In this document: positions 18,449 through 35,443 of the stretch, in pieces
Numbering within the stretch: the stretch's first letter is position 1
Layout of the letters: each line of letters opens with the position of its first letter
Assembly: GCA_964508365.1 (NCBI GenBank)
Contig: CAZDTP010000042.1
Span: forward strand, 1-35,659
Direction: 5' to 3'
From: an uncultured archaeon
GTDB lineage: Archaea > Asgardarchaeota > Lokiarchaeia > Sigyniarchaeales > SOKP01
DNA: 35,659 nucleotides
Translations under genes and position numbers: made by a program
Notes under the pieces: model-generated
What the model saw: the letters and a program-made list of their open reading frames with translations, nothing else
Databases searched by the model: none
Told to the model about the DNA's origin: nothing

Positions 18449-18814
18449 CTGGTTTCAATTTTTATCGTGGAAGACGATTTGTCCTTACAAAAGTTATATG
18501 AGATGATGATTTTCACATTTGGATTTAAAGTTGTTGGAAAAGCGAACAACGGAAAGGAAGCAATTGAAAAATTTTATGCACTAACTAATAAACCCGATGT
18601 AATTTTAATGGACCACCGTATGCCCGTTCAAAATGGAATAGATACAGCGTTAATATTGTTAAAACTAAAAAAACCTCCGAAAATCATCTTCACAAGTGCG
18701 GATATATCTATTAAAAACCGAGCGTTAGCAATAAACGGTTTAACATTTTTAGAAAAACCATTTACTGTGAAGGCTTTACATGATGAGATTATAAAAGTAT
18801 TAGGGATAAGTTAA
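18449..18814 (+). CDS. Stand-alone response regulator (CheY-like receiver); start extended from the track's 18467 to CTG 18449
   Basis: (L/M)VSIFIVEDD beta1/acidic pocket, phospho-Asp in VILMDHRMP, FTSAD, EKPF; GGAGGAGGT SD at 18436-18444. Confidence 0.88.
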   Translation: MVSIFIVEDDLSLQKLYEMMIFTFGFKVVGKANNGKEAIEKFYALTNKPDVILMDHRMPVQNGIDTALILLKLKKPPKIIFTSADISIKNRALAINGLTFLEKPFTVKALHDEIIKVLGIS

Positions 18815-19024: not shown

Positions 19025-20512
19025 ATGAGCTATAAATTAGCAGATGATAAGGATTTAGACGCGATGATTGGTATTGTAGGAAAAGAGTATGCCACCAATA
19101 ACAAGGCAATTACAGCGTCATATCTTTCCAAATCTGTAATGGGATTAGAGTCACAAATTCCTGATATCGTCGTACGCCCCAAATACATTGAAGAAATTCG
19201 TAAAATTCTACTTTACTGCTCTGCAGAAAAAATTGCAGTCTCACCGATTTCAGCCGGACTATCAGGCGGCTTTGCGTGTCCAACTATTAAGCCTGCGGGA
19301 GTTATGCTTGATTTAGGTAGAATGAATAGAATTATCGAAGTCGATACAGATAATCGATACGTCGTAGTCGAACCGGGAGTCACGATTGGAGAGCTTTGGG
19401 CTTACATGCATAAAAATTATCCAGAGTGGGCGCCTCCCGTACCAGACGGTGCTCCACCAGCTTCTACCGTAATGGGTGATGCTATCGATCGAGGGTTTTC
19501 CCTTTATACTAGCTCCGTTGGTCCACAAGGTGATAACTTCATGTGCGGTGAAATAGTGTTTCCAAACGGAGATATTGTGCGAACTGGTTCTTGGGCTCTT
19601 CCATTTGCGAAACCGTTCTATAAATATGGATTAGGTCCAGATATCTGGTCCTTTTTAATGGGTTCACAAGGAGCTTTAGGCGTAATGACTAAAGTCGCAG
19701 TTAAAATATATCCTCATCCAAAATTTAAGACTGTGGTTGTGTGGGGTATGTCCAATCCTGAGGATATGCAGAACCTAACACTAGAAATAGGAAAACAAGA
19801 ATTTGGAATTGCTCACAACACCGTTATGGTTCAAGGTGGGAATTATCCTTTAGTAATGACGCGTTGGCCAAAGGATAAAGTTCCTCACGATTATGAATTC
19901 TACGAACAGTTAGGAATTAGTAGGTGGTGGATGAATTGGGAGTGCTGGGCACAAACTCAAGAAGAGTTAGATTATGTAGTTAATAGAATCAATAAAATGG
20001 CTGAAGATTTCAAGAAAAATAGAGCTAAAGACCCTGATAGTATAAAACCTCAGGAACTACATCCCAAACAAATCGCTAGCAGATTGAAGAAACCCAATAA
20101 GATTGCAGTTCCTTATTCTTTTTGGGAGGCAGGATTTTTATTCATTACGTTCTATACCCCATGGAACGAATGCGCCCATTTTGCTGAAATGTATACTGCT
20201 GCTATGGAGAAATATGGTTTTCCACCAGTCATGTGGATTGCTAGTATTGAACGTTGTAGACAAGCAATTTGTATGCCAATTATTTGTTTCGATAGCACAA
20301 AACCATCAGATTTCGAAAAAGTTCAAGAGATGAATAGAGAAACAACAGAATACGCGCTTAAGCAAGGGTGGTTGAATTATCGTCCAGATCCATACATCCA
20401 CGCACCTCTCACTTATTCTCAAGCAGGAATGTATTGGAAATATTTGAGGATGATAAAGAAGATGTTTGATCCTAATCAAATTATGCATCCTGGGAGGCTT
20501 GCTCTTCCATAA
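19025..20512 (+). CDS. FAD-binding oxidoreductase, VAO/PCMH (GlcD-like) subunit
   Basis: PDIVVRPK...E, MLDLGRMNRIIEVD, VVEPGVT, GEIVFPNGDIVRTGS, GSQGALGVMTK, FDPNQIMHPGR. Confidence 0.88.
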   Translation: MSYKLADDKDLDAMIGIVGKEYATNNKAITASYLSKSVMGLESQIPDIVVRPKYIEEIRKILLYCSAEKIAVSPISAGLSGGFACPTIKPAGVMLDLGRMNRIIEVDTDNRYVVVEPGVTIGELWAYMHKNYPEWAPPVPDGAPPASTVMGDAIDRGFSLYTSSVGPQGDNFMCGEIVFPNGDIVRTGSWALPFAKPFYKYGLGPDIWSFLMGSQGALGVMTKVAVKIYPHPKFKTVVVWGMSNPEDMQNLTLEIGKQEFGIAHNTVMVQGGNYPLVMTRWPKDKVPHDYEFYEQLGISRWWMNWECWAQTQEELDYVVNRINKMAEDFKKNRAKDPDSIKPQELHPKQIASRLKKPNKIAVPYSFWEAGFLFITFYTPWNECAHFAEMYTAAMEKYGFPPVMWIASIERCRQAICMPIICFDSTKPSDFEKVQEMNRETTEYALKQGWLNYRPDPYIHAPLTYSQAGMYWKYLRMIKKMFDPNQIMHPGRLALP

Positions 20513-20520
20513 CTGAGTAA

Positions 20521-20526
20521 GGAGGT
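20521..20526 (+). promoter_or_regulatory. Shine-Dalgarno GGAGGT
   Basis: 8 nt upstream of ATG 20535. Confidence 0.6.
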
Positions 20527-20534
20527 AAAAAAAA

Positions 20535-21890
20535 ATGGCTAAAACTGGAATGGAAAGATTAAAAGAATTAGAAAAGGAAATATATAAGTGTATCCATTGT
20601 AAAGCTTGTAGGTTTGCTTATTCGGGAGAGCCTAGTAGAGCTGGAATAGGGGAATTCACTGGAAAACAAGGTACAGTTCTTTACGAAGGAATGCTTGACG
20701 CGTGTCCTGCTGGAATAGAATACGGTTGGGAAGCATTTTGGAACGCTGGTAAAATTTGGATTGCTCGTTCAATTTTAAGCGGAGATTTAGAATTTTCTGA
20801 TGAAGTAAGGGATGTGATTATGCCGTGCATTACATGCGGACAATGTTCAGCCCAATGTGATAATAAAATACCCACAGTAGACATCATTGAATCTTTACGG
20901 GCTGCGTGTATAGAATCAGGTGTTCCTATGATTGAGAAACATCAATTAGTCGATCGCCTAGTCAAGGAATTAAACAATCCTTACGGCGGAAAGGCAAATG
21001 AACGATTTAAATGGGCGAAGGATGCCGGTTTAGGAAAATATATAAATAATAAAAACGCTAAAATTGGATATTATGTCGGTTGTACTGCTAGCTATCGGCA
21101 AATAGAAGTTGCAGTCGCTACAGCAAAAATTTTTGAACAATTAGGAATAGATTTTACATTAATCGAAGAAGAAGTGTGTTGTGGAAGCCCCTTCTTTAGA
21201 ATCGGCGCCGTTGATACTGCCCAAGAGTTAATGAGGAAAAATCTCGAGGCTTTTAAGAATTTAGAAACGGTCTATTTCTCATGTGCAGGTTGTTATCGGA
21301 CTATAACGATTGATTATCCAAAATGGATGGCAGAAGACGAGAAACTCCCTTTTAAAACCATGCATGCATTTGAATTAGTTTCAAAATTAATCACTGAAGG
21401 AAAGATTAAATTCAAACCTAATAAAGAACTCAAGGGAAAAGTTGTAACATATCACGATCCTTGCCATACTGGAAGACATTTTGCGCTTGACATGGAACAA
21501 AAAATGATCAAGAACTCCAAGAACCTAATGTTTGATATGCGCAAGGTAGACAAAGCGATCGACGAATGGTTTGAAATTCCTAGAGTTATTTTACGGAAAC
21601 TTGAAGAAGATGTCGGGATTAAGTTTACTGAGATGTATCGTATAAAAAATAATTCGATGTGTTGTGGTGCTGGTGGAGGAGTTAGAGCAGGTTACCCTGA
21701 ATTCTCAATACGAACTGCAAGTCTGCGATGCGATGAAGCTAATGCAGTAGGAGCAGATATTTTGACAACTGAATGTCCTTTTTGTTGGAGGAATTTAAGC
21801 GATGCTAATGATCAGTATAATCATGGTATGCAAGTAATGGGCGTTCTGGAAATGATCTCTAAATACAATTTATTAGATATAATCTCTTAA
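20535..21890 (+). CDS. Fe-S oxidoreductase, GlcF/HdrD/GlpC-like (2x[4Fe-4S] + two CCG domains)
   Basis: CIHCKAC...CP, CITCGQCSAQC, YVGCTA, VCCGSP, FSCAGC, YHDPCHTGR, MCCGAGGG, TECPFC. Confidence 0.9.
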   Translation: MAKTGMERLKELEKEIYKCIHCKACRFAYSGEPSRAGIGEFTGKQGTVLYEGMLDACPAGIEYGWEAFWNAGKIWIARSILSGDLEFSDEVRDVIMPCITCGQCSAQCDNKIPTVDIIESLRAACIESGVPMIEKHQLVDRLVKELNNPYGGKANERFKWAKDAGLGKYINNKNAKIGYYVGCTASYRQIEVAVATAKIFEQLGIDFTLIEEEVCCGSPFFRIGAVDTAQELMRKNLEAFKNLETVYFSCAGCYRTITIDYPKWMAEDEKLPFKTMHAFELVSKLITEGKIKFKPNKELKGKVVTYHDPCHTGRHFALDMEQKMIKNSKNLMFDMRKVDKAIDEWFEIPRVILRKLEEDVGIKFTEMYRIKNNSMCCGAGGGVRAGYPEFSIRTASLRCDEANAVGADILTTECPFCWRNLSDANDQYNHGMQVMGVLEMISKYNLLDIIS

Positions 21891-22090: not shown

Positions 22091-25000
22091 TTGACTAACG
22101 TGGAAAATAAGACGGCTTACCCATATATAACAGAATTTAAAAAGGAGCCGTTTAAGTCTTTTGTTTTAACAAATAGAAAGGATATCGGTAATTTCTATTT
22201 AAGTAATTACAATAATGTTCTAGAATTATATCAGGATCATAATAAGAACTTAATTGAAGAATCGTCTTTAAGTTTGGAGGATATTTTTTGGTTTCTCCTT
22301 CTGAGGAAATATCTCAAACAAAAAGTGGACGACCATAGTGAAGGTTTCTTAGAATTTATAAAAAAGTGTGAAGTTGAGATAATTGAAAAAGATCAATTGG
22401 GATTCAAATCATCGCCTTATTCAGTAAAAAGACCTGATATTTGGTCAACATACCATGCTCTAGCAAGTTTAGAATTATTAGGAGTGCTCCAAAAGTACTT
22501 ATCGTCTAAAGGCCAAGATATTGTTATTGAAGAAATTAAGAATTTTATTTATGATCATAAAAGAAATAATGGATTCTTACATTGCCTTGACAAACAATGC
22601 GAATTATGTAATCAAGGACCTTTAGGAAAGACTTTTTACTATGTTGTTGAAAATCTCATGCTTATCGGTGTTGATGTAAGGGTTTTCATAGAGCAATTCC
22701 GTCAATATTTAAGAGAAAGAAAAAAAGATGTATCATTAATTTTTAAACTCCTCAGTTTAAAATTCTTTGATTTAGATTCAGATGTAAAAGATAAGGAAAT
22801 TCAGCATTTCTATCAATTTCAACAGGCAAATGGAGGTTTTGTCATAGATTCAATTGAAGGAGATATTGAAACTACATTTTGGTGCGTAAATCTTCTAGAT
22901 ATATACTCATGGCTTATAGATTACAACTCAGCAAGAATTTATTCTTTTATCGCTGAGAAATTAGACTCATTATTGAAAGATAAAGAAAGATGGAATTTAA
23001 TCGCGTTAAGAAATGTTACTAAACTAGTAATCTTGCTATCTATTATCTGGAATCGTTTTATCGAAGAAATCGAAAGAGTCGTATTTAAGCGGTTAGAGAT
23101 TTATAATTTTATCGATTTAAACCAGATAAAAACTACCTTTGGGTTAAACCATGGAGTAGAGGAGATTGTACTCTATATCAACCTCAATTATATGTTTAGT
23201 TTGAAGAATATCGATATTACTTCGGAATTTAATAAATACCTACAAAATTTAAGTCATGGTAAAAAGATAATAATCCAAGAAGTTTACGAACAATTAAGAA
23301 ATAATAGTATTGTATCACTTTCGGATATTTACAAAAAATATAAAAGTTCCTACCAACAGGAACCTGTGAAATTAAAAGAAGACATCTTTCCGATCATATA
23401 TGACTTAATAAGCAACCACTTTTTTGAAGGGGAGATCAGAGCAAAAAAGGCTTATTTATTCAAAACAAAATTCTACTTTTGTTTAGATTTTTTATACAAA
23501 AACATAATTATTTCCGATAAGGAAATTAACACCGAAAGATTGTTTGAAGAAAAAGCTAAACTGAAGGAAATTAAAAATGATATTTACAATATGACTTTGA
23601 AGCTTAAAAACACTATCCCTCTTATCAAAGAAGAAATAGAATCATATCTTTTGATAGACGAAGTTGATTTCGCTAAACAAAGGTTGAAGTTTGTATTGAG
23701 AGATTCATTAATGGAAGCAGATTTTCTTAATAAAAACATTGAAACATCTTTCAATCAAGATCTTATATACATCAACCTACAAGCTGCTTTAGGTTCTGAA
23801 ATATCTCAATGGAACAAGTCATACTCTTTATTGCAAAAGCGTTTAGGTGAATTAAATAATTATCTCCTAGAAAAGATCCAAGAGATGGAAAAATTAAAAA
23901 AATTTAGCATTATTTTAGACGAACTAGATAATAGAATATACGATATTCAGGATCAGATAAATCGCGAGATAGATTCTTTTAAAAATTACATTACGGAAGT
24001 TCTTGAGAAGGGTTATGATGAAGAAAAATTAAATCTTATTATAAATGCATTTAATAAAATAGCTCAGGTTGTAAGCAAATACGATTCAGTTATTTACAAA
24101 GTCTCGCATCAAATTACATCTAAAGAGAAAAAGATTGCAAAGAACCATAAGAAAATAATATATAAATGGGTTAATTTTAAAGAGAACTTTGATTTGATTT
24201 TTGCTGATTATACTAATGGTTTTCAGTTTTTCAACGAATTAAATAGACAGATAGGAAATGTTAAAGATAATATACAAGAAGGAATTTTGCAAATTAAAGA
24301 GGACGCTAAAAATAGTGCGTCTCAAAATCAATATCAAGACGCATTTAATATTATCAAGATGGAAGCGGATAACCTACTAAAAGAAAAAACAAAGGAAATT
24401 CAAAGCTTAAAATTAAATGTTAAAAAAAACACTTCCTTTAAACAGAAACTATTCCCGCTTTATAAATATATAAATGAAAAGCTCGACAGTCTGGAAGAAA
24501 ACATTATTGAGTTCATAGCCGAACAGGAGCAATTTTTAAAAGAAAAGGTTATAGAAGAAAGAAATAGAGCAAGTGTTGAGGATTTTGATAGTTTTGTTTC
24601 CGATACTATCCAAAATTTTAAGAATAAGTTAGAAAATTACAGGAAAAACATTGAGCAAAACAAAACAAATAAAATTCCGAATGTTATTAGTGGTTTTGAT
24701 GCAATTCTAATTGATTTTAACGAAAATAATAAGATTTTTTCTAAAAAGCTAATAAATCTAAAAATCATTATCCCAGATCTTGATGAAAGTTCGATAAAAA
24801 TAATACAATGGGAGAAATTTAAAGTTTTTATTAGTGATGAAGTTGATAAACTGAAGGAAGAATATGTGAATGGCATTATTTCTCAAGAAATTATACTCAT
24901 GAGTGAGGAGGAGCACACAGACACAATTAGTATAAAAAAACTAGCCGATAAGCTAAAAATCAAATGTAAAGCGATAATTCCAAGAATTAAAGACATGATA

Positions 25001-26503
25001 GAGGTGTCTAAATTGCAAGGTGATTTACTTGAAGATAAAAAAGAACTAATAGTTCACACTGAAGCTTATCATAAATATAGAGAATTAAAAAATTTTACAG
25101 AAAATAGAATTATTAAGCAAACACAAGAGGCAGTAGGAAAATTATTAGCCCTTTACGATTCGTGTATAAAAAACAAAACTCTTGGAGTAAATTTATTAGA
25201 AATTGAGAATAGAATTAAAGATTTAAGTGATTTGAAGGAATCTATTACCAACCAATACAACACTAAGACAAAAGAGTTAAATGTTGACGAGAATAGATTA
25301 GAGAATATGGAACTGATTAAGAATCTAAAAGCGGTTATAGATAATAATGAGATAGCGATTTTGAATATAAAAGAAAATTTAGTGATTTTTGAGGACTTAC
25401 AAATATTCATTGTCGATGTGTTAGATAATGTAAAAATCGAAATAGAAAACCAACTAACTAAAACTTTTGATAATGTTGAGAGAGCTGAGTCCCATGCAAA
25501 GATGAGGGAAATTCTTGAAGGGAGAAAGGAGCGTGTTATAATTAGACTAAAACAGGTTGACGAAAAAATCGAGAATAGATTGAAATCGATCATTAGTATA
25601 TCTTATGAATCAAGGAAATTTGAGACCGAAGCGAGAGAATTCTACGTTAAGAAAAAGAATGTGATTAAAAAAAGAGTAGAAGAAAGAGTTCAAGCAATAA
25701 ATGATAAAATAAATTCTTTAAGGTTTGAGACGGATCGAGGTAAATTATTAACCACGATTACCAACAAAAATACCCATTTATCTCAATTATTAGGAACATT
25801 GCAGACGAGGGTTGAAGATTATATCGAAACAGGGCAGTATAAGAGAGCCTACTTAAAAGTTAGTAAAAAAAAGGTCTCTATCGAGCAGGAAATTAAAAAT
25901 ACAAGTAAAGAAATAAAAGATTTAATTAGGACATTTAACCGAAATTCGAACGATTTCGAAACCAAAAATATTCACATCATAGATGATTTTAACCGCTTTA
26001 TTAAAGAATTTAACGACATTTTAAGAGAGAAAGTAAACACATTAGAAGAATTAATCATAAAGTCATATGTAGAAATGGCAATAAAAGCCGTTGCTAATGA
26101 ATTCTTAACCTTAAGTTTCTTGCAGAATGAATTGAAGATAAAAAAACCACTTATTCAAAAAAACCTAATTTCTCTGATTAGTGCTGGAAAATTGAAAGGG
26201 AAATACGATCCTCAGATCGGTTTATACTACGAAAACCCGGAAGTTCTGAATAAGCTTGATGAAAAAGAGTTAGAAGTTATAAAGAAAATGAATTTCCGTG
26301 TATATATATTTATGAGGCGTTTAAAGAATTTTACAAACCAATATGGTTCCATTATTGCTTTCTTTGCATCTCTCCTTACAATATCTTATTATATCTTCCG
26401 AATTACAGGAGAAAACCCAATTACGATAATGATTCCTATTATTTTGACATTAGTAGTACTTGGTTACCTTCTCTTTAAGAAAAAGAAAGATGAAAAGATT
26501 TGA
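22091..26503 (+). CDS. 1470-aa multidomain protein: prenyltransferase-like repeats, winged helices, long coiled coil, PCI-like winged helices, C-terminal 2-TM anchor
   Basis: LGF...PDIWSTYHALASLELLG, KRNNGF, FQQANGGF...GDIETTFW; heptad-rich res ~480-1330; TISIKKLADKLKI...MIEVSKLQG and LTLSFLQNELKI...LISAGKLKGKYD; two hydrophobic helices then KKKK. Confidence 0.8.
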   Translation: MTNVENKTAYPYITEFKKEPFKSFVLTNRKDIGNFYLSNYNNVLELYQDHNKNLIEESSLSLEDIFWFLLLRKYLKQKVDDHSEGFLEFIKKCEVEIIEKDQLGFKSSPYSVKRPDIWSTYHALASLELLGVLQKYLSSKGQDIVIEEIKNFIYDHKRNNGFLHCLDKQCELCNQGPLGKTFYYVVENLMLIGVDVRVFIEQFRQYLRERKKDVSLIFKLLSLKFFDLDSDVKDKEIQHFYQFQQANGGFVIDSIEGDIETTFWCVNLLDIYSWLIDYNSARIYSFIAEKLDSLLKDKERWNLIALRNVTKLVILLSIIWNRFIEEIERVVFKRLEIYNFIDLNQIKTTFGLNHGVEEIVLYINLNYMFSLKNIDITSEFNKYLQNLSHGKKIIIQEVYEQLRNNSIVSLSDIYKKYKSSYQQEPVKLKEDIFPIIYDLISNHFFEGEIRAKKAYLFKTKFYFCLDFLYKNIIISDKEINTERLFEEKAKLKEIKNDIYNMTLKLKNTIPLIKEEIESYLLIDEVDFAKQRLKFVLRDSLMEADFLNKNIETSFNQDLIYINLQAALGSEISQWNKSYSLLQKRLGELNNYLLEKIQEMEKLKKFSIILDELDNRIYDIQDQINREIDSFKNYITEVLEKGYDEEKLNLIINAFNKIAQVVSKYDSVIYKVSHQITSKEKKIAKNHKKIIYKWVNFKENFDLIFADYTNGFQFFNELNRQIGNVKDNIQEGILQIKEDAKNSASQNQYQDAFNIIKMEADNLLKEKTKEIQSLKLNVKKNTSFKQKLFPLYKYINEKLDSLEENIIEFIAEQEQFLKEKVIEERNRASVEDFDSFVSDTIQNFKNKLENYRKNIEQNKTNKIPNVISGFDAILIDFNENNKIFSKKLINLKIIIPDLDESSIKIIQWEKFKVFISDEVDKLKEEYVNGIISQEIILMSEEEHTDTISIKKLADKLKIKCKAIIPRIKDMIEVSKLQGDLLEDKKELIVHTEAYHKYRELKNFTENRIIKQTQEAVGKLLALYDSCIKNKTLGVNLLEIENRIKDLSDLKESITNQYNTKTKELNVDENRLENMELIKNLKAVIDNNEIAILNIKENLVIFEDLQIFIVDVLDNVKIEIENQLTKTFDNVERAESHAKMREILEGRKERVIIRLKQVDEKIENRLKSIISISYESRKFETEAREFYVKKKNVIKKRVEERVQAINDKINSLRFETDRGKLLTTITNKNTHLSQLLGTLQTRVEDYIETGQYKRAYLKVSKKKVSIEQEIKNTSKEIKDLIRTFNRNSNDFETKNIHIIDDFNRFIKEFNDILREKVNTLEELIIKSYVEMAIKAVANEFLTLSFLQNELKIKKPLIQKNLISLISAGKLKGKYDPQIGLYYENPEVLNKLDEKELEVIKKMNFRVYIFMRRLKNFTNQYGSIIAFFASLLTISYYIFRITGENPITIMIPIILTLVVLGYLLFKKKKDEKI

Positions 26504-26521: not shown

Positions 26522-28066
26522 TTATTCTTTTCTTTTTTTAAGTAAGACAAATTTTGTAATAAGTAGAGAACTTAAAGTTATGATATATATGATGCTCCAA
26601 AGAACGATGTAAATTTCTATATTAAGATACCAGATTGGGTTTTTCAGATCGTTAAAAGTGTGTACTTCGTTCGTCATAATAAAAGTCGTCCCTAAGCACC
26701 AGAGTTGACTGAATCTTTCGATACTATCAATTGTATAAACCATAACAGGGAGATTGTGTAAATAAAATGATCTATATAATTCATTAGAGTATTCATCCCC
26801 CGTTTTGATAATTGTATAATTATATTCAGACATTTCGAATTCTTCTAAGGAAGGATTAGATCTCATATCCATGCCTAATAAAATATCAGTGGCATTTTTT
26901 TGGTTAATCAAATCAATCCATTCAGCGTCGCTAGTGAAAATCATAACTTTTGTTAAATCAATTCCCGATTCGAGTGTTTCGTTCATTATTGTTTCAAAAT
27001 ATACTTCACTATAGAGATGGCTTGATGATGGTAATTTAGTATCGAAATCTATATAAAAGCCATTATCTCTTGTAAAATTTAAAACTTCTTCAAATGTTGG
27101 AATTTGTATGCCCCTGTAATTTTCTCCGTCTTCTTTTGAAATACGACCAAAAGCTAAAGCCCCGTATGGATCTTTGTCCGCAAACCAACTACCAGCGTCT
27201 AATTGTCTTAGTTCAGAAAGCGTGAATGTTTCAGCGCGATCGTTCTTTCGATTTGGAAAAATATCCTCTACATCAGTGGTTCGAGTGAGAGTATCATCGT
27301 GCAGTAAAAATAATTCTCCGTCAATAGAAATTCTTATGTCGACTTCCCAACCAACAGCCCCGTGTTCTACTGCTAATTCTCCCGCTACGATAGTATCTTC
27401 TGGGGCTAAATGCGATGCACCTCTATGTGCTATAATGTTGGGTTTGGGAGGTAGATCGCCGAAAATCACATTTGAGGGGATAAACAATAGCGGAGACGCA
27501 AAAGCAAAAAAATATCCAGTAATTAAAAGTCCTAAAATAACATTTGACTTTATTTCTACATTTAATATCCTATTTGATAAATGACCTTTCCATTGTGGGA
27601 TTGATTTTATCAAAGGATATAAGCCCAAAATAAGTAAGAGTGAAAGGGGTATTGTAAAAAATATACTATAAAACTCAATAACTTGAGGAATTAATCGGGA
27701 GTATTGTTCTAAAGAGTATAATAATAATGCGAATAGACTTGAATATATGAACATTAGAACTATTGGTATAATTTTATTTAGGATACAAGGTTTAATTTCG
27801 TTATTTTTTTTAATATTCCTAAGGTGTATGTGAAAAATCGCTACTCCATAAAGTAGCGGAAGTAAGAGGATTACGATAATTAGAAATACAAGATTTAAAT
27901 CAAAGCCAATATAATCAGAGACTATTAAATTAATATCTCCCCAATATACATGAAAAATTAGCATTATCGATTCTAAAATCATCATGTTTATGATTAACAT
28001 CAAATCACATAGCAACCACTTTTTTCCTTTTATTTTTTGAAGCATATTGAGTAACATCATTTTCAA
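26522..28066 (-). CDS. Six-TM glycerophosphodiester phosphodiesterase (5 TM + GDPD + 1 TM)
   Basis: IIAHRGASHLAPEDT, WEVDIRISIDG, LLHDDTLTRTT, LDAGSWF, IPTFEEVL, LWCLG; TM pattern. Confidence 0.9.
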   Translation of the reverse strand: MKMMLLNMLQKIKGKKWLLCDLMLIINMMILESIMLIFHVYWGDINLIVSDYIGFDLNLVFLIIVILLLPLLYGVAIFHIHLRNIKKNNEIKPCILNKIIPIVLMFIYSSLFALLLYSLEQYSRLIPQVIEFYSIFFTIPLSLLLILGLYPLIKSIPQWKGHLSNRILNVEIKSNVILGLLITGYFFAFASPLLFIPSNVIFGDLPPKPNIIAHRGASHLAPEDTIVAGELAVEHGAVGWEVDIRISIDGELFLLHDDTLTRTTDVEDIFPNRKNDRAETFTLSELRQLDAGSWFADKDPYGALAFGRISKEDGENYRGIQIPTFEEVLNFTRDNGFYIDFDTKLPSSSHLYSEVYFETIMNETLESGIDLTKVMIFTSDAEWIDLINQKNATDILLGMDMRSNPSLEEFEMSEYNYTIIKTGDEYSNELYRSFYLHNLPVMVYTIDSIERFSQLWCLGTTFIMTNEVHTFNDLKNPIWYLNIEIYIVLWSIIYIITLSSLLITKFVLLKKRKE

Positions 28067-28196
28067 ACTTGGAATCTTTAATTTAATAATAAAATAATCT
28101 TTTTTTATTGATAAAAGGATTTAGAGGATTAATTATTAAAAACAAAAAAATTTCTATTTATCTATTTATAGCTTTAATCTTTGTTATTGAGCATAT

Positions 28197-29729
28197 TTAT
28201 CTGCTTTTTTTTAGTTTATGTCTAATAATATCGATTGAACTTAAAGCTATTATGCAAATCGCAATCCAGATCGTGATGTAGGAAAGAATAGGGAAGAATA
28301 AAAAGTTACTCTCCAAATCGTTAAACTTATAGGGGGAATTAGTCTTTACCCAATCCACTCCCAAACACCATAATTGATAATATCTTTCGACAGACTCGAT
28401 TGTCCAAACCATAGTATCTACATCAGCTGTTTTTAAAGCTCTATATTCATCATTGGAGTACCCATCACCTGTATTAATATATGTATAATTAATAGTAGAA
28501 GATTGAAATTCTTGCGTTGTTGGTGAACCAGGCCATCCCAATTGTATCTCAGGAGCGGAATTATTTATCATTTCTATCCATTCGCTATTTTCTGTTGGTA
28601 TCATTACTTTACCTAAATCCATACCTGATTCTATCGTCATGTTTAAAAGAATTTCGTAGAAATCATCATAATATGGATGACCTACTGAGGGTCTATCTGC
28701 ATCAAAATCTAAAAGGTAATCGTTATCTCTTGTGAAATTTAACACTTCTTCAAAAGTGGGAATTTTAATGCCTCTGAATGATTCTGCGGTTGCTTTTGAG
28801 ATTATTCCACTAGCAATAACTCCATAGGGATCGTTATCTACAAACCATGATCCAGCGTCTAATTCTCTAAGTTCTGAAATATTGAATGTGTAAGCCTTAT
28901 CATTTTTTCGATTTGGAAAATGTTCAGAGATATTAGTTGTTCTAGTGAGAGTATCGTCGTGCATTAAAAAAGGAACGCCATCAAAGCTGATTTGAATATC
29001 AACCTCCCATCCTACAACTAAATCATATAAGAGAGCCGCTTCACCTGCTTCGATTGTATTCTCGGGAGCAAGGTGCGAGGCTCCCCGGTGAGCTATTAAC
29101 TCTGGTTTAGGTGGTAAATCGTAAAATAATACATTAGATGGAATAATAATAAAAGGTATTGTATAAGTAATTACATATCCTCCTATTATGCAAGTTAATA
29201 TGATCATCCATTTTCTATTTGCTTTTATGAGTTTATTTGATAAATTTTCCTTTAATTGTGGTATTATCTTAAGTATAGGGTATAAAATCATTATGAGAGC
29301 AATATCTAGTCCAAGAAATATAAAAAAGCTATAAAATTCTATACTTTGAAATATAACATTTGCGTATTCTTCAAGAAAATCAAGTAAAATTACAATAAGA
29401 AGATTATAAATGATTATTAAAATAATTGGTATAATTTTATGGATGATATGAGGTTTAATTCTATTAGTTTTTATTATTTTTCTTAATTTAATAGTTAATA
29501 GTGATAAACCATAAATCAACGGGATTATAATAATAATACCAATGATAAGAACGATATTAATCTTAAAATCAACCCAACCCGAGAATGTTGAATTAATGTC
29601 TCCCCAATATGGTTCAAGTAAATAAATGTACGTCATAAAAATCGCAAAATTTACGCAATATATGCTATAGAGAATTATCCATTTTTTTCCTTTTCTTCTT
29701 AGAAATGAGTTGATATCCATTTTTACCAT
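28197..29729 (-). CDS. Six-TM glycerophosphodiester phosphodiesterase, tandem paralog
   Basis: LIAHRGASHLAPENT, WEVDIQISFDGVPFLMHDDTLTRTT, LDAGSWF, IPTFEEVL, LWCLGVDWVKTN; colinear with the neighbour from the N-terminal KGKKW onward. Confidence 0.9.
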   Translation of the reverse strand: MVKMDINSFLRRKGKKWIILYSIYCVNFAIFMTYIYLLEPYWGDINSTFSGWVDFKINIVLIIGIIIIIPLIYGLSLLTIKLRKIIKTNRIKPHIIHKIIPIILIIIYNLLIVILLDFLEEYANVIFQSIEFYSFFIFLGLDIALIMILYPILKIIPQLKENLSNKLIKANRKWMIILTCIIGGYVITYTIPFIIIPSNVLFYDLPPKPELIAHRGASHLAPENTIEAGEAALLYDLVVGWEVDIQISFDGVPFLMHDDTLTRTTNISEHFPNRKNDKAYTFNISELRELDAGSWFVDNDPYGVIASGIISKATAESFRGIKIPTFEEVLNFTRDNDYLLDFDADRPSVGHPYYDDFYEILLNMTIESGMDLGKVMIPTENSEWIEMINNSAPEIQLGWPGSPTTQEFQSSTINYTYINTGDGYSNDEYRALKTADVDTMVWTIESVERYYQLWCLGVDWVKTNSPYKFNDLESNFLFFPILSYITIWIAICIIALSSIDIIRHKLKKSR

Positions 29730-29840
29730 TCATTTATTAAATTAATTACTAATATATTTAACTTCGAATTTTCTGTTAATAAGCGTTATGGTAATTTGTT
29801 GAAGTTTAAAAAATTATAAATCAGAATATAAAAAAGGAAT

Positions 29841-32003
29841 TTAGTCATAATCCATAATGAATTCTACGGTATCAGTATTTCTTTTAAGGTAGCCTAAATG
29901 GCATGCTTGATTAAAATGGATGTAAAATTTCTTATCTATAATATCTTCCTCTTGTGCAAATTCTTTAAAATCAGAAAGCGGCATTTTTCCATCTACGCTA
30001 TAAGTATGAGCAATTTTTATTAGCGTTTTTACATTTCTATTTAAATATATTTTTCTTTCTGTCATTTTCTTATTCTTTTCTTTTTGATTTAATTTTAATT
30101 TTAACATAGAAGTTTTCAATTTCGATTTATCCAATCCAATTACATCAGAATAAAAAGTTACACCCACGTCTTTAAACATTTTAAATTCTTCACTGTGGGC
30201 AAAGTTATCAAGTTCTGTGATAATTTCTTCTATTGATCGATCCGCAAGTAGTTCTTTTTCCCTTTCTCTTCGTTCTCGATAGTTTTTAATTAAATCGACT
30301 TCTCGAAACTTATTTTGATCTAATTCAAAGCAGATTCTCTCTCGATTTTTAATATTGTATAAATCTAACTGTTTTGAATCTAAAAGCACACAATTCATAG
30401 TCGATTCCTTTCTATCTGCAGCTTTATAAAAAGGGACATCAATAGATTGTCTGGCTATTAATAGATAGCACCTCCCTGGTCCATATCGGCCCGTTCTACC
30501 GCGTCTTTGGATTAATCTAATCTCTGAGGGAACGGGTTCGTAAAAAATAATTGCGTTCACATTTGGAATGTCAAGTCCTTCTTCTGCAACGCTGGTGGCT
30601 ACAAGTATATCTAGCGTTCCTTCTTTAAATTGTTTAATAATTTCAATTTGCTTATCTTGCGAAAATCCTAAATCATCTGTTTTGGATGATTGACCGATAA
30701 ATTTTTCAACTTTTAAGAGAGAATCAAAGCGTTTTTCTATTAAACTCTTTAATAATTCAGCCATGTCTCTGTATTGCGTGAAAATGATGATTTTATTGTT
30801 TCGATAATCTTCGATTTCTTCAGTAATTATTGAAAATAACTTTTCTATTTTAGGATGTGAATATTCATTAATGTTATTCTGTATTAGATTGTTTTTGATA
30901 AATTTGAAGTGTTCGGAGTTGACGATTCTTTTAGCCGAAAGTATGTCTTGATCGGATTTGTATTCAATTTTTTCTAGAAATTTTAAAAATAGCGTAATAT
31001 TTTGAGATTCCAATAAATCTTTACCGTGAAGTAAACTTATAAAACTTGAGCAATAAGAGAAAATCGATTGAACATTTAAAGAGTTTTCTTTAACTAAATC
31101 TCTTATTCGATCAGTCTTAAAATAGAGTGCACTGAAATAATCCTCTTCAGATAGTTCCGGTAAATAGCCGTTCTCGTACTTGAGAGAAAGTGTCAAATCG
31201 CGAGATATCCCTAAGAAATCTAATTTAGAATAATATCTTTTGTTAGGGGGTAATAATTTTTTGTCAATAAAAAATTTTAGAAATTTTTCAAACAAGTTAT
31301 ACCAGACTGCGCTCAGTTCAATTACTTTTACGGGTAAATCGACGAACTCTAAATATGTATCGATATCGTATATATACTGTTTTACATCTTGGTCCTCGTA
31401 CGTTTTGAAAATTACATTTTCAATAAACAAATTATTACATAATTGCTGTATGTGAAAATAGCTTTTTCCTGGAGATGCGGTTAATCCTAAAATGAGAGGA
31501 TCTTGGCATGTATTGAGATATTCGTTCGATATAAAACAATACGAATAATTACCTCTCGTTCTGTGAGCTTCGTCAAAAATAATTAGAGAAACATGCTTTA
31601 AATCGTATCTACCTCTTTCTACATCATTTCTTATTATCTGAGGTGTTGATATAATAATTTTAGAGTTATTAAAGTGAATAATCCTTTTTTCAGGCGATAT
31701 TCTACCCGTAAACGAAATAATCTCATTTGGTTCAATGTTAAGAAATTCCTTACATGACGCTTTATGTTGCGAAACTAAAGGTCTAGTGGGAGCAAGAATA
31801 ATAATTTTAGATTCAGGATATTTTTCTAAAGCCTTACCTACAAGTAAAATACCAATAATCGTTTTTCCTAAACCAGTTGGTAAAACTATTAAAGAATTTC
31901 TTCCTTTACACCTTTTTATTATATTATTTTGATACTGTCTATACAATACTCGATTTTTTTTTAAAAAGGGATGATTAAAATATCCAGAAACTTCTGTTTG
32001 CAT
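29841..32003 (-). CDS. hef: Hef/FANCM/Mph1-type SF2 DEAH helicase, apparently without the ERCC4 nuclease
   Basis: RQYQ, LPTGLGKT, FDEAHR, GLTASPG, IIFTQYRD, ATSVAEEGLDIP, QRRGRTGR. Confidence 0.88.
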   Translation of the reverse strand: MQTEVSGYFNHPFLKKNRVLYRQYQNNIIKRCKGRNSLIVLPTGLGKTIIGILLVGKALEKYPESKIIILAPTRPLVSQHKASCKEFLNIEPNEIISFTGRISPEKRIIHFNNSKIIISTPQIIRNDVERGRYDLKHVSLIIFDEAHRTRGNYSYCFISNEYLNTCQDPLILGLTASPGKSYFHIQQLCNNLFIENVIFKTYEDQDVKQYIYDIDTYLEFVDLPVKVIELSAVWYNLFEKFLKFFIDKKLLPPNKRYYSKLDFLGISRDLTLSLKYENGYLPELSEEDYFSALYFKTDRIRDLVKENSLNVQSIFSYCSSFISLLHGKDLLESQNITLFLKFLEKIEYKSDQDILSAKRIVNSEHFKFIKNNLIQNNINEYSHPKIEKLFSIITEEIEDYRNNKIIIFTQYRDMAELLKSLIEKRFDSLLKVEKFIGQSSKTDDLGFSQDKQIEIIKQFKEGTLDILVATSVAEEGLDIPNVNAIIFYEPVPSEIRLIQRRGRTGRYGPGRCYLLIARQSIDVPFYKAADRKESTMNCVLLDSKQLDLYNIKNRERICFELDQNKFREVDLIKNYRERREREKELLADRSIEEIITELDNFAHSEEFKMFKDVGVTFYSDVIGLDKSKLKTSMLKLKLNQKEKNKKMTERKIYLNRNVKTLIKIAHTYSVDGKMPLSDFKEFAQEEDIIDKKFYIHFNQACHLGYLKRNTDTVEFIMDYD

Positions 32004-32328
32004 TAAAGAAAAGTTGAAGTTAATTCTTTTTAATACAGAGGGGGTTAAGGTTTAATAAGATTAAAAAAAACTTTTTAGACTAATTTATCATTTCAAGTAA
32101 CTTAGTTTTTATTATTATTTTCTTTTAATATAGTATTAAATAAGATATGGAACTATATCGATTAAACAAATACTATGTAGATTCAACAAGTTTAAATATA
32201 ATAAATTCTTAATGAATAATAAATAACTGAATTACAACTTAGCCTCTTCTCCCAAGTTAGTTTATACGCGCCGTGGTTCACTTTGGATAAGGTTAAGCTT
32301 GATAATTGGGAAAAGCATGTGAATAAAA

Positions 32329-33903
32329 ATGAAGATTTTATATATTAATCCGGCCCGTCTGGAATCGGGGATGGATGCTATTATTACTGGTGCTCCATTA
32401 AGTTTAATTTCGATAGCTGCTATGGTCCCAGAACATGATGCAAAATTGTTTGATTTCAAGGTTGATAAATATCGCGAGAGACAATTTCGTAGCGAGTTAA
32501 ATCTGTACGATACAGTAGCAATCACAAGCATGACTCCACAAATATATTCCGCCTTAGAAGTTGCTAAAATGGCGAAAGAGCAAGGTTGCAACACGATTAT
32601 AGGTGGATACCAGCCTACCTTAGTACCAGAGTTTGTAGCTGACCATGAGTATGTAGATTTTACGGTAAGAGGAGAAGGAGAACATACATTTAAAGAAATT
32701 ATCGATTACCTTGATGGGAATAAAAAGCGAATTTCTCTTAAAGAGATTGATGGAATCTCGTATAAAAATAAGGAAGGTAATATTATCCATAATTCTGAAA
32801 GAAAATTAGAACCCAACTTAGATAATTTTCCAATGCCTAGACGAGATTTATTAAAAGGAAAGCTTTACACGTACTTGGGCACCACAACTCGCCAAGTAGA
32901 GACTTCAAGAGGTTGTCCGCACAACTGCAAGTTTTGCTGTATTATAAAAATGTGGAGAAATTCAGACAAGGGAACTACTTACAGAACCAAATCAATTTCA
33001 AGAATAATGAGAGAAGTGTACGATGTTGACTGGAAAAATAATTTTATTTTTTTCTGTGAAGATAACTTCACAATTAATGTGAAAAGAACAAACAAGATAT
33101 TAGATACTTTAATTAAATCAGGAGTCAACAATAAAATGCACTTTTCTTGCCAATCAAGAGTGGATACTCTATATAGGAACCCCGAATTAATCGATAAATT
33201 GTACAAAGCCAATTTTAGGCAAGTTTTTCTTGGAATTGAATCCGTTCATCAGCAGAGTCTAGACGCGATGAATAAGAAGAACACTACGCCTGCAATGGTT
33301 AAAGTAGTAGTAAAAAGTTTACGAGACAAAGGAATTTCAATTTTTGGTGGTGTGATAATTGGATTTCCTGGCGAAACCAAACGAATGGTTAGACAAAATA
33401 TTCAAAATACTATAAACTTAGATTTAGACTGTGTTCAGTTTACCCCCATTACTGCTTTTCCGGGAACGGATTTTTACGATGAAATGAAAGAAAAAGGAAT
33501 GATAACCGCAAGCAATTATAAATTTTACGACTTATTTCATCCGATGATGGGAACTGAAGAACTAACTTCCATAGAAATGTATCGCCTTGTAGCTGAAGCC
33601 TATGCCGCTTTTTATCTGAAAGGATGGCTATTAAGAAGAGCCAAAGAATACTTGAATCCTTTTGGAAAATTCAATTGGATGCTGTCATCCTTGTTAAGGT
33701 TAATTAAGCAGGGTGTATTAGGCGGTTTAGGAATGTTCTATTCTCAAGGTATCACAACTAAAGTGATTTCAAAGGAATTAAAAAATAAGGTTGATTTAAT
33801 GAAAGACATCACCCCCACTCTTGAAATATCCACAGCAAAAAAAACCGAAGAACCGTTAAAGCGTGATACGCTAACACCAGAAATAGCTGAAAAAATATAC
33901 TGA
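32329..33903 (+). CDS. Cobalamin-binding (class B) radical SAM protein
   Basis: N-terminal B12-binding domain (APLSLISIAA, ITSMT, GGYQPT, VRGEGE), ETSRGCPHNCKFC, FCEDNF, FLGIES, IIGFPGET, TAFPGT. Confidence 0.9.
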   Translation: MKILYINPARLESGMDAIITGAPLSLISIAAMVPEHDAKLFDFKVDKYRERQFRSELNLYDTVAITSMTPQIYSALEVAKMAKEQGCNTIIGGYQPTLVPEFVADHEYVDFTVRGEGEHTFKEIIDYLDGNKKRISLKEIDGISYKNKEGNIIHNSERKLEPNLDNFPMPRRDLLKGKLYTYLGTTTRQVETSRGCPHNCKFCCIIKMWRNSDKGTTYRTKSISRIMREVYDVDWKNNFIFFCEDNFTINVKRTNKILDTLIKSGVNNKMHFSCQSRVDTLYRNPELIDKLYKANFRQVFLGIESVHQQSLDAMNKKNTTPAMVKVVVKSLRDKGISIFGGVIIGFPGETKRMVRQNIQNTINLDLDCVQFTPITAFPGTDFYDEMKEKGMITASNYKFYDLFHPMMGTEELTSIEMYRLVAEAYAAFYLKGWLLRRAKEYLNPFGKFNWMLSSLLRLIKQGVLGGLGMFYSQGITTKVISKELKNKVDLMKDITPTLEISTAKKTEEPLKRDTLTPEIAEKIY

Positions 33904-34051
33904 CTTTTTTATTTCTTGTTTTATAATAAATTTAAAGTTGATTCGTTTTAGGTAGTCTTGCCTTAATATCTCGATTTTACGTTGAAAGATTTGAAAAACA
34001 TAAAAATTTATCTTACAAGTAATTTTTAAATTCAAAGATTTGACTTAAAAA

Positions 34052-35443
34052 GTGATAAAACTGAAAATAGCTTTTATTGGAGCAGGCTCAATAGTATTTG
34101 GTGAAAATGTTCTTACCGATATACTTACATTTCCTTCAATACAAAAAGATACGATAATATGTCTTGAAGATATTGATCAACATCGATTAAATATGATGTA
34201 TGATCTAATGAAAAAATATAAAGAGTTGGCCCCCAAGGAATTGGATGGCGTTACATTCGAAAAAACTACGGATATGAAAACAGCAATATCGGATGCAAAG
34301 TATATTATCAGTGCAATTCATGTTGGAGGCTTAGATGCATTTCAAGCAGATATAGATATTCCGTTTAAGTATGGGGTTTCACAATGCATTGGAGATACGT
34401 TAGGACCGGGAGGTGTGTTCCGGTTTTTGCGTAACGCTCCTGTGTTAAAACAAATAGTAGAACTAATAAAAGAGATAGGTTACAACTCTGAAAATCAGGA
34501 AGGAAGGCCTCTTTTTCTTAACTACACAAATCCTATGGCAATGAATACATGGTATTGCAATTCTATAAACCCAGATTCAACTGTTGGGCTCTGTCATGGA
34601 GTTCAAGGAACGAGTATGGCGTTAAGGGATTGGATTGGAGTTAAGCCGGAGAATTATAGCTTTTTCTGCGCTGGAATTAACCACATGGCATGGTTCCTTG
34701 AATTGTGGTATCGAGAATCAAACTCTTCAAACTTTCCATGGAAAAATGCTTACCCTCTTTTAAATAAAAGATGTAAAGCTAATCCAAACATCATTGGGGG
34801 AGATATTCTTCGATGGGACATGATGGAAGCAACGGGATATTTTATGACAGAAACTTCAGGACACCTTAGTGAGTATCTCCCATATTATCGCAAAAGAAAT
34901 GATTTACTGGAGAAATATAGTGGAAAAAAATCGGGTCATGATAGCCTATTACAAGCAGAAGATTATAAAATGCAAACAAAGAACCAAGAAAGGATGGAAC
35001 GTCGATTTGAGCAAAAAATATCACGGAAAAAGTTAATTCTAAAACGAACTCCATCCTATGAGTATTGTTCTCACATAATCAATGCAATGGAAACGAATAT
35101 CCCTTTTAGATTTAATGGTAATGTTATGAACAAAAATGGATCTTTAATTACCAACTTACCTAAGGATTGTTGCGTTGAAGTCCCAATATTCGCTGATTAC
35201 CACGGACTACATCCCCAAGGAGGAATTGAATTACCAACGGTGTGCCAGGCTCTCTGTATCTCAAATGTAATGGTTCAAAAAGCAGCAATAGAAGGACAGC
35301 TCTCGCTTGATAGAGAAAAAATATACCATGCGATTCTCTTAGATCCTAATACAGCTAGCGTTTGTTCTCCTAAGGAAGTGAAAGACATGGTTGAGGATAT
35401 GTTTGAAGCTGAAAAGCAATGGCTTCCTCAATTTAACCAATAA
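34052..35443 (+). CDS. melA: GH4 family NAD+/Mn2+-dependent glycosidase, probably alpha-galactosidase (MelA-like)
   Basis: KIAFIGAGS, GDTLGPGG, NYTNPM, GLCHG (metal Cys), GINHMAW, ETSGHLSEYLPY, CVEVP, AILLDP. Confidence 0.8.
   Translation: MIKLKIAFIGAGSIVFGENVLTDILTFPSIQKDTIICLEDIDQHRLNMMYDLMKKYKELAPKELDGVTFEKTTDMKTAISDAKYIISAIHVGGLDAFQADIDIPFKYGVSQCIGDTLGPGGVFRFLRNAPVLKQIVELIKEIGYNSENQEGRPLFLNYTNPMAMNTWYCNSINPDSTVGLCHGVQGTSMALRDWIGVKPENYSFFCAGINHMAWFLELWYRESNSSNFPWKNAYPLLNKRCKANPNIIGGDILRWDMMEATGYFMTETSGHLSEYLPYYRKRNDLLEKYSGKKSGHDSLLQAEDYKMQTKNQERMERRFEQKISRKKLILKRTPSYEYCSHIINAMETNIPFRFNGNVMNKNGSLITNLPKDCCVEVPIFADYHGLHPQGGIELPTVCQALCISNVMVQKAAIEGQLSLDREKIYHAILLDPNTASVCSPKEVKDMVEDMFEAEKQWLPQFNQ

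Follow-up and report, generated by a model that had tools for sequence, protein, structure and literature searches.

Enzymes with the architecture considered here include the animal proteins GDE2 (GDPD5), GDE3 (GDPD2) and GDE6 (GDPD4), studied as regulators of glycosylphosphatidylinositol (GPI)-anchored proteins in neurogenesis, neurodegeneration and cancer. Each is composed of five transmembrane (TM) segments, a GDPD ectodomain and a sixth TM segment. The type of cleavage differs among them: it is phospholipase C (PLC)-like for GDE3, a GPI-specific PLC (PMC5576486), and phospholipase D (PLD)-like for GDE2, which also acts on GPI anchors (PMC7033719). Mutation of a catalytic histidine, H229 in GDE3 (H229A) or H233 in GDE2, abolishes activity (PMC5576486). 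The GDPD fold is also found in soluble enzymes, such as GlpQ, UgpQ, the T. tengcongensis protein 2pz0 and B. subtilis GlpQ (5t9c), and in enzymes with lyso-lipid substrates, such as the lyso-phosphatidylglycerol PLD of S. aureus (8ghh; NF053857) and a lysoplasmalogen-specific PLD (7ymp). A literature search for GDE2/3/6 (GDPD5/GDPD2/GDPD4) in archaea or bacteria found no paper linking them.

Two genes coding for proteins of the six-TM type are described here in an uncultured archaeon of the Lokiarchaeia (SOKP01; assembly GCA_964508365.1, contig CAZDTP010000042.1). "The window" indicates the whole stretch analyzed, 35,659 nucleotides (nt) long and AT-rich, with a G+C content of about 31%. The genes, copy A and copy B, are adjacent open reading frames (ORFs) on the minus strand (Table 1), coding for intact paralogues, 50% identical from end to end; they are the only six-TM GDPD copies in the genome (4.07 Mb, 149 contigs). 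The two proteins are probably metal-dependent GDPD phosphodiesterases of the GDE2/GDE3/GDE6 family, made of a five-helix bundle, an extracellular barrel and a sixth helix, and encoded by accessory genes. New in this report are the tandem A/B pair, read as parental, the deletion chimera, the variable slot with its transfers, a homology test limited to the TM segments, and the contrast in prevalence between Asgard archaea and Anaerolineae.

Architecture, family membership and catalytic residues

Both copies feature five N-terminal TM segments and one C-terminal TM segment in hydropathy plots. Between them lies the GDPD domain (Pfam PF03009, about residues 214-466/469; E 2.8e-22 for copy A, 5.3e-24 for copy B). 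For copy A, AlphaFold2 was run on a 75-sequence alignment: the whole-length model has a mean pLDDT (predicted local distance difference test) of 93.8 and a pTM (predicted template modelling score) of 0.90, and its helices, at residues 15-37, 59-88, 95-132, 134-162 and 170-194, coincide with the predicted TM segments. Hydropathy and Pfam for both copies, and AlphaFold2 for copy A, agree on the arrangement that an earlier note, made from the letters of the window, had reported for the two paralogues.

The numbers of lysines and arginines in the successive loops of copy A alternate as 6/1/7/0/5, followed by the catalytic domain and by 5 in the tail; copy B alternates likewise. The domain of copy A, 281 amino acids (aa) long, is acidic, with 46 Asp and Glu against 18 Lys and Arg. 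By the positive-inside rule, both termini are strongly predicted to be cytoplasmic and the GDPD domain to be outside, while the cytoplasmic orientation that the earlier note had considered is not indicated. The outside loop after TM1 reads YWGDIN; this loop and the bundle are conserved across all three domains of life.

Membership of the animal family was evaluated by phmmer against a library of 1.84 billion representative proteins, which returned 8414 hits, the best 150 of which were inspected. Next after the archaeal relatives come proteins of 490-650 residues, matched in one alignment over residues about 11-499; among the best 150, full-length non-archaeal hits are 26-30% identical, with E from 1e-45 to 1e-35. 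Named hits are GDPD5-like proteins of an annelid, a gastropod and a crinoid, GDPD2 of a bird and of bichir, and GDPD4/5 of bichir. Nearly all full-length homologues feature the 5+1 TM count. In trees built by FastTree and by IQ-TREE (C20-PMSF, posterior mean site frequencies), the six-TM proteins, including the animal enzymes, form one clade against the soluble GDPDs, with 100% support.

A profile limited to the TM region (archaeal residues 10-198, stopping ahead of LPPKP) was compared with 660 composition-matched shuffles. Most of the TM regions from named animal proteins reach 20-37 bits, against 9.2 bits for the best shuffle; the low scorers are Ciona, at 11 bits, and the Chromosphaera and Mastigamoeba rows, at about 5 bits. 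As most animal scores lie above those of the shuffles, the bundle is homologous, and the likeness is more than topological. Copies A and B are therefore full-length homologues of the eukaryotic GDE2/GDE3/GDE6, and the resemblance to these enzymes proposed by the earlier note is confirmed by the full-length matches, the clade and the TM-only profile alike.

The catalytic set of copy A includes H214 and R215 (in LPPKP-x-LIAHRG), E242, D244, H257-D258, D343 and the HPY block; copy B retains every catalytic position of this set (H, R, E, D, H-D and D), so that both histidines (HRG, HD) noticed earlier are indeed present in both proteins. H214 aligns with GDE3 H229 and GDE2 H233. Across 75 archaeal, bacterial and eukaryotic members, H214, E242, D244, H257 and D258 are invariant, R215 and D343 nearly so. 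D343 stands where soluble GDPDs have the E of N-x-E-x-K: the Lys is gone and the HPY block is present, consistently replaced by HLY in copy B and its orthologues.

The motifs common to the two copies and animal GDE2/3/6 are LPxKP-x-IAHRG, DG(V/I)PFLMHD-x-TL-x-RTTN..FP, AGSWF..DP, FD...P..HPY, LWCxG and, ahead of TM6, P-x-W...Y...W. All the motifs listed in the earlier note are found, and are shared with the animal enzymes; copy B has HLY. Their use as family markers holds only in part: DGxPFLMHD..RTTN..FP and AGSWF..D are present in the nearest soluble GDPDs too, and are therefore not diagnostic of the six-TM family. Specific to the membrane family are LPxKP, the D-for-E/no-Lys/HPY block and the C-terminal P.W..Y...W with TM6.

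The archaeal proteins are thus similar to animal GDE2/3/6 in overall layout, homologous bundle, catalytic histidines and the LPxKP, FD..P..HPY and P.W..Y...W motifs. They are shorter, about 510 aa, and are not extended at both cytoplasmic termini by long stretches as the animal proteins (540-650 aa) are; they also differ in forming a separate clade (98%), in their setting of ether-isoprenoid lipids and in being encoded by accessory genes in a variable slot. With soluble GDPDs they share the TIM barrel (template modelling score 0.78-0.85 on the target), the two catalytic His, the Arg and the Glu/Asp metal ligands, and with the nearest subgroup also RTTN..FP and AGSWF; the soluble enzymes, however, have no helix bundle and no HPY block, and feature E-x-K at the third metal site. 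The best Foldseek matches of the copy A model are soluble as well (2pz0, 5t9c and 2otd; E about 1e-14). Identity as GlpQ/UgpQ equivalogs was considered and rejected: scores are 39-85 bits, well under the cut-offs of 254-264 for the NCBIfam models NF008354 and NF006989, and cover only the N-terminal third of the profiles. The two lyso-lipid PLDs give partial sequence matches (E 6e-10 and 1e-16) as well as fold matches; they differ in architecture, score 39-61 bits against a family cut-off of 450, and fall outside the six-TM clade.

Both copies are under purifying selection (dN/dS 0.10-0.32 for copy A, 0.19-0.28 for copy B). They are old paralogues, each maintained by selection. Counted from a TTG, copy B has 514 aa, but its translation more likely begins at one of two in-frame ATGs, at 28060 and 28057. 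A promoter specific to copy B may lie within the A/B spacer.

Taxonomic range and relation to the eukaryotic enzymes

The closest relatives are found in metagenome-assembled genomes (MAGs) of Promethearchaeota (Loki), Hodarchaeota, Hermodarchaeota, Thorarchaeota, Heimdallarchaeota and Helarchaeota, and in one Bathyarchaeia genome; some carry the JGI name "glycerophosphoinositol inositolphosphodiesterase", which is that of GDPD2. In a survey of Asgard archaea, 64 of 399 genomes (16%) have a match, in 21 of 85 genera and several classes; in the genus of the window, 13 of 42. Genomes with a homologue include G142 and G138, both closed in one contig (4.3 and 6.0 Mb) and belonging to the order of the window. 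A clade of 14 metagenome-protein rows with the same 5+1 architecture belongs to Anaerolineae (Chloroflexota; Anaerolineaceae, Brevefilum, Anaerolineales). The full-length form is rare in this class: it was found in 2 (0.5%) of 401 genomes sampled evenly across it, 19 other matches being soluble GDPDs. The Anaerolineae proteins (for example loci L004-L035), uncharacterised, share architecture and motifs with the archaeal ones, are 24-30% identical to them, and lie within the same membrane clade; unlike them, they often carry a C-terminal extension of roughly 70-100 aa. Among the matches listed, eukaryotes beyond animals are the ichthyosporean Chromosphaera perkinsii, Mastigamoeba balamuthi (at least 5 paralogues) and Amoeba proteus. 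A profile of the non-metazoan eukaryote sequences recovered only extra Mastigamoeba paralogues and generic soluble GDPDs, which is no evidence of absence elsewhere. Neighbours in the ESM Atlas are from Promethearchaeota, Chloroflexota and Chordata.

Trees were built on 76 rows: 32 archaeal, 12 from Anaerolineae, 22 eukaryotic (8 of which, unnamed, are assigned to eukaryotes by tree position only) and 10 soluble outgroup rows. The long rows P0203 and P0263 were excluded from the later tree analyses. The full-length tree is based on 515 columns, with no outgroup, the rooted trees on 269 columns of the GDPD domain only. In the full-length tree each group takes one side of a branch, with 98% support for Archaea, 100% for Anaerolineae and 94% for eukaryotes in the Shimodaira-Hasegawa-like approximate likelihood ratio test (SH-aLRT). 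Eukaryotes are not nested among Heimdall or other archaeal sequences. The archaeal sequences are separate from the bacterial clade, and the branching with bacterial membrane GDPDs contemplated in the earlier note was not found.

When all rows are rooted, eukaryotes and Anaerolineae are joined (98% SH-aLRT), with archaeal rows basal; the approximately unbiased (AU) test gives p 0.045 against eukaryotes with Archaea, and an identical 0.045 against Archaea with Anaerolineae. Of three group-constrained topologies, eukaryotes with Anaerolineae ranks first, with a RELL (resampling of estimated log-likelihoods) proportion of 0.72 under LG+F+G4 and 0.84 under LG+C20+F+G4. The two alternatives are nearly equal in likelihood and both within the confidence set: p-AU is 0.26 and 0.12, under the same two models, for eukaryotes with Archaea, 0.18 and 0.16 for the third topology. 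A polarised synapomorphy count (group consensus against outgroup) gives 0-2 columns for any clade pairing, so that none of the topologies gains discrete support. The balance of the data tips towards the Anaerolineae clade as nearer kin of the eukaryotic enzymes, without being able to settle the question.

These results bear on the origin of GDE2/3/6, for which the earlier note had proposed "possible Asgard ancestors". The proposal is not supported as worded: a bacterial six-TM clade exists in Anaerolineae, and rooted trees pair eukaryotes with it, although eukaryotes with Archaea is only weakly disfavoured. Nor does the family qualify as a eukaryotic signature protein of Asgard origin, since Anaerolineae and Bathyarchaeia carry it as well. 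Direct descent of GDE2/3/6 from the Asgard proteins through the archaeal host, with secondary gain in Anaerolineae, would fit the far wider spread of the family in Asgard archaea, the basal archaeal grade of one rooted tree (where archaeal monophyly has just 63%), the p-AU values of 0.12 and 0.26, and a eukaryotic range that exceeds animals. It appears rather unlikely, as the rooted trees prefer the other pairing, eukaryotes are found neither inside the archaeal clade nor beside Heimdall sequences, the gene is patchy and mobile even inside one genus, and the named eukaryotic hits, among the matches listed, are Amorphea only. As the family is spread much more widely in Asgard archaea than in Anaerolineae, archaea are the more likely older prokaryotic home of the family; the indication comes from distribution, not from the tree.

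Locus L059 (DATKTW010000045.1, titled "Candidatus Nanopelagicaceae bacterium SMAG_U14091") matches positions 26688-35235 of the window gene for gene over 8.5 kb (GH4 glycosidase, radical SAM, Hef, A, B), most of the proteins being about 80-96% identical: labelled actinobacterial, it is Lokiarchaeial, from a mis-binned or mislabelled MAG. L036, also of the SMAG series and labelled "Candidatus Deferrimicrobium", holds a Hel-type archaeal copy and pairs with L037 at 98%. P0322 (M. balamuthi, EukProt m51a1_g12335, 1122 aa) is annotated with Pumilio repeats (PF00806) fused to a GDPD membrane protein, a fusion that merging of gene models may explain; P0138, 886 aa long, appears to be a tandem or merged gene model.

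The variable slot and the chimeric B gene

The tandem occupies a slot flanked by the 3' ends of two core genes in convergent orientation, coding for a Hef-type helicase and for a 1470-aa protein. The slot was surveyed in the 42 species genomes of the genus, the queries being the two paralogues and the end of the 1470-aa protein. The A+B tandem is found in the window and in genome G255 (92-93% identical; copy A orthologue 92%); A alone in G233, in the same slot; B alone in six species (G232, G240, G241, G246, G250, G251), where flanks match as far as contigs extend. In at least 17 species the slot is empty, only 18-90 nt separating the helicase gene from the 1470-aa gene; among them is G244, with a 1470-aa protein 95% identical to that of the window. 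In G231, G266 and G254, A or B is located at another site, while the home slot is empty. The six-TM GDPD genes are therefore accessory: they reside in a variable slot, and most congeners are without them.

Copy B orthologues, present in 8 congeners, are 85-93% identical to the one in the window. The B gene of G254 is 85% identical, against about 57% for flanking core proteins. Beside this transferred B (L099:3069-3293), and beside a B relic in G269 (L105:1252-1473), lies a 74-codon piece of the helicase gene, coding for its last 74 residues at 74-77% identity; in both genomes the complete helicase gene is elsewhere, adjoining the 1470-aa gene. The relic in G269 consists of the first 55 or so codons of B and of the same helicase fragment. 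The free-standing fragment looks like the footprint of transfer via flank recombination.

Every single B gene starts with MVKMDINSFLRRKGKKW, the 17-codon leader of copy A, with two conservative substitutions in G254; in G246 and G240, aligned as DNA, the upstream 70 nt of A precede the leader. In all of them B-type sequence follows, and the switch takes place at AAAAGGAAAAAA(A/G)TGG, common to A and B. As single B genes carry the A leader, the simplest reading is that the tandem is the parental state, from which they would derive by deletion between short repeats, later moving between species.

In four B-only species (G246, G241, G251, G232) about 1.3 kb separate the helicase and GDPD genes. 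One such gap was read, in G246 (L097:216-1244): it contains two small membrane-protein genes that are not in the window, of 163 aa and 146 aa. The latter protein is zinc-ribbon-like at its N-terminus and rich in Cys and Gly in its tail. The slot accepts other cargo besides GDPD genes.

Table 1. Coordinates of the two GDPD genes, of their parts and of the genes bordering the slot, as positions in the window.
Feature	Position	Strand	Basis
Copy A (P0001, 510 aa), predicted six-TM GDPD ecto-phosphodiesterase	28197..29729	-	ORF, Pfam GDPD, AlphaFold2
Copy A TM helices 1-5, about residues 15-194	29148..29687	-	hydropathy, Lys and Arg counts, AlphaFold2, TM-only profile
Copy A GDPD TIM-barrel ectodomain (predicted), about residues 205-470	28320..29117	-	Pfam, Foldseek, motif alignment
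Copy A TM helix 6 and basic C-terminal tail, about residues 481-509	28203..28289	-	hydropathy, AlphaFold2
Copy B (P0002, 514 aa from TTG), predicted six-TM GDPD ecto-phosphodiesterase	26522..28066	-	ORF, Pfam GDPD
Copy B TM helices 1-5, about residues 17-198	27473..28018	-	hydropathy
Copy B GDPD ectodomain (predicted), about residues 205-473	26648..27454	-	Pfam, motif alignment
Copy B TM helix 6 and basic tail	26537..26620	-	hydropathy
A/B spacer, 130 nt, A/T-rich	28067..28196	-	sequence
AAAAGGAAAAAAATGG (codons K-G-K-K-W), upstream repeat arm, in copy A	29679..29694	-	direct repeat at A-leader/B-body junction
AAAAGGAAAAAAGTGG, downstream arm of the same direct repeat, in copy B	28016..28031	-	sequence comparison
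Hef/FANCM-type helicase gene, slot border, no functional link	29841..32003	-	Pfam DEAD, Helicase_C, ResIII
Gene of 1470-aa tail-anchored protein with prenyltransferase-like head, other slot border	22091..26503	+	Pfam PF00432 (weak)

Two further ORFs, 27174-27584(+) and 25153-25593(-), lie antisense inside real genes and were taken as shadows. Elsewhere in the window, positions 16916-18814 code for a PAS-PAS histidine kinase of 510 aa and, after it, for a receiver domain that stands alone (115 aa), and positions 19025-21890 for an FAD-binding oxidase and a CCG/4Fe-4S protein; all four are annotations of an ordinary kind. Past the helicase gene, at 32329-35443, are genes for a B12-binding radical SAM protein and for a glycoside hydrolase of family 4 (GH4): they are syntenic in L059, and show no linkage to GDPD genes in other lineages.

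Proposed function and significance

In the mechanism proposed for the two proteins, the helix bundle would hold the barrel at the outer membrane face, where the barrel would cleave a phosphodiester in a glycerophospholipid-type head group; H214 and H257 would provide the general acid and base, while the metal would be bound by E242, D244 and D343. The substrate would most likely be a lyso-lipid or be embedded in the membrane, a free soluble diester being less likely, because the animal relatives act on inositol-phosphate head groups (glycerophosphoinositol, lyso-phosphatidylinositol, GPI anchors) and because the whole bundle is conserved across the three domains of life. The genome encodes one inositol-1-phosphate synthase, five CDP-alcohol transferases and five PIG-L family proteins, so that inositol phospholipids can plausibly be made; this is a weak indication, since PIG-L proteins occur widely, also in E. 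coli and B. subtilis. As the GDPD genes are missing from most congeners, a function tied to a niche seems more likely than one at the core of membrane biogenesis, candidate targets being foreign lipids, lyso-lipids or an optional surface component.

Gene neighbourhoods were also considered. PfkB kinase genes are found at 16 of 34 Anaerolineae loci; PfkB and a C_GCAxxG_C_C redox protein often come after the bacterial GDPD gene (15-16 of the 34 loci, for example L004:7748-9142), and SulP is another neighbour. A GFO/IDH/MocA oxidoreductase and a HAD hydrolase are near the GDPD gene in six related Loki loci, out of 32 archaeal ones. A pathway built on either set was rejected, these associations being too local. 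The PfkB and GFO/IDH/MocA families include inositol-catabolic enzymes, and their presence is a weak lead, hinting at an inositol-containing product.

Several points weigh against the proposed reading. The positive-inside rule is the one basis of the outward orientation, and prokaryotic six-TM GDPDs are known as sequences and models alone. The Protein Data Bank, searched by sequence and with the AlphaFold2 model by Foldseek, returned only soluble GDPD barrels and no six-TM GDE. With D for E and the Lys lost at the third metal site, chemistry may differ from that of GlpQ/UgpQ. The bundle could serve oligomerisation or regulation rather than lipid access. That most congeners dispense with the genes speaks against a central part in the lipid cycle of the cell's own membrane and, across the 32 archaeal loci, no conserved neighbour points to a pathway.

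The proteins might instead be membrane-anchored, GlpQ-like scavengers, hydrolysing soluble glycerophosphodiesters of decaying biomass for glycerol phosphate, inositol or phosphate. Such a role would suit the accessory, niche-like distribution, common to sediment Anaerolineae, the nutrient GDPDs among the nearest solved folds, such as B. subtilis GlpQ, the sugar-metabolism neighbours (PfkB, GFO/IDH/MocA), and the GDE3 name, given to some archaeal proteins by JGI, which derives from hydrolysis of soluble glycerophosphoinositol. A tether, however, requires no more than one TM helix or a lipobox, yet the 5+1 bundle and the outside loop are conserved; the Lys of the soluble E-x-K motif is gone, and in the 32 archaeal loci no transporter or catabolic operon is linked. 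On balance a nutritional role seems unlikely. Release of lipid-anchored surface proteins, GPI-like or other, is possible by analogy with the family and would agree with the predicted outward-facing domain, with the cleavage of GPI anchors by GDE2 and GDE3 (PMC5576486, PMC7033719), with the five PIG-L genes and the inositol-phosphate synthase, and with two diverged paralogues, which could have separate targets, as GDE2 and GDE3 do. Against it, PIG-L proteins are common deacetylases, the GDPD genes are absent from most congeners, and no gene for a candidate substrate is linked in the 32 archaeal loci. GPI-anchored proteins, to our knowledge, have not been demonstrated in Asgard archaea, and shedding is a distinctly improbable role. 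The least probable arrangement, by far, is a catalytic domain in the cytoplasm, acting on inner-leaflet lipids or cytosolic diesters: it would be compatible with a topology that is currently a prediction, but is at odds with the strict charge alternation in both copies, with the basic tail, with the acidic domain, and with the same layout in animal GDE2/3, where the domain is an ectodomain by experiment (PMC5576486).

Intact relatives of full length in Asgard archaea, one bacterial lineage, amoebozoans and an ichthyosporean show that the GDE2/3/6 family is old and crosses the domains of life. A bolder version, in which an Asgard stock of the eukaryotic enzymes already acted on surface inositol-phosphate ether lipids or lipid-anchored proteins, Anaerolineae being secondary, is very doubtful; if true, a GPI-like surface layer was already being shed or remodelled under regulation before eukaryotes arose. 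For eukaryogenesis the family calls for caution: behind an apparent eukaryotic signature protein stands an accessory gene that is patchy and mobile, and the path by which it entered eukaryotes is not yet readable. The tandem provides two diverged natural variants, and the congeners a natural chimera, for work on substrate specificity. The small prokaryotic members, with about 510 aa and a pLDDT of 94, should be tractable for a first structure of a six-TM GDE and for its mechanism, including the role of the bundle.

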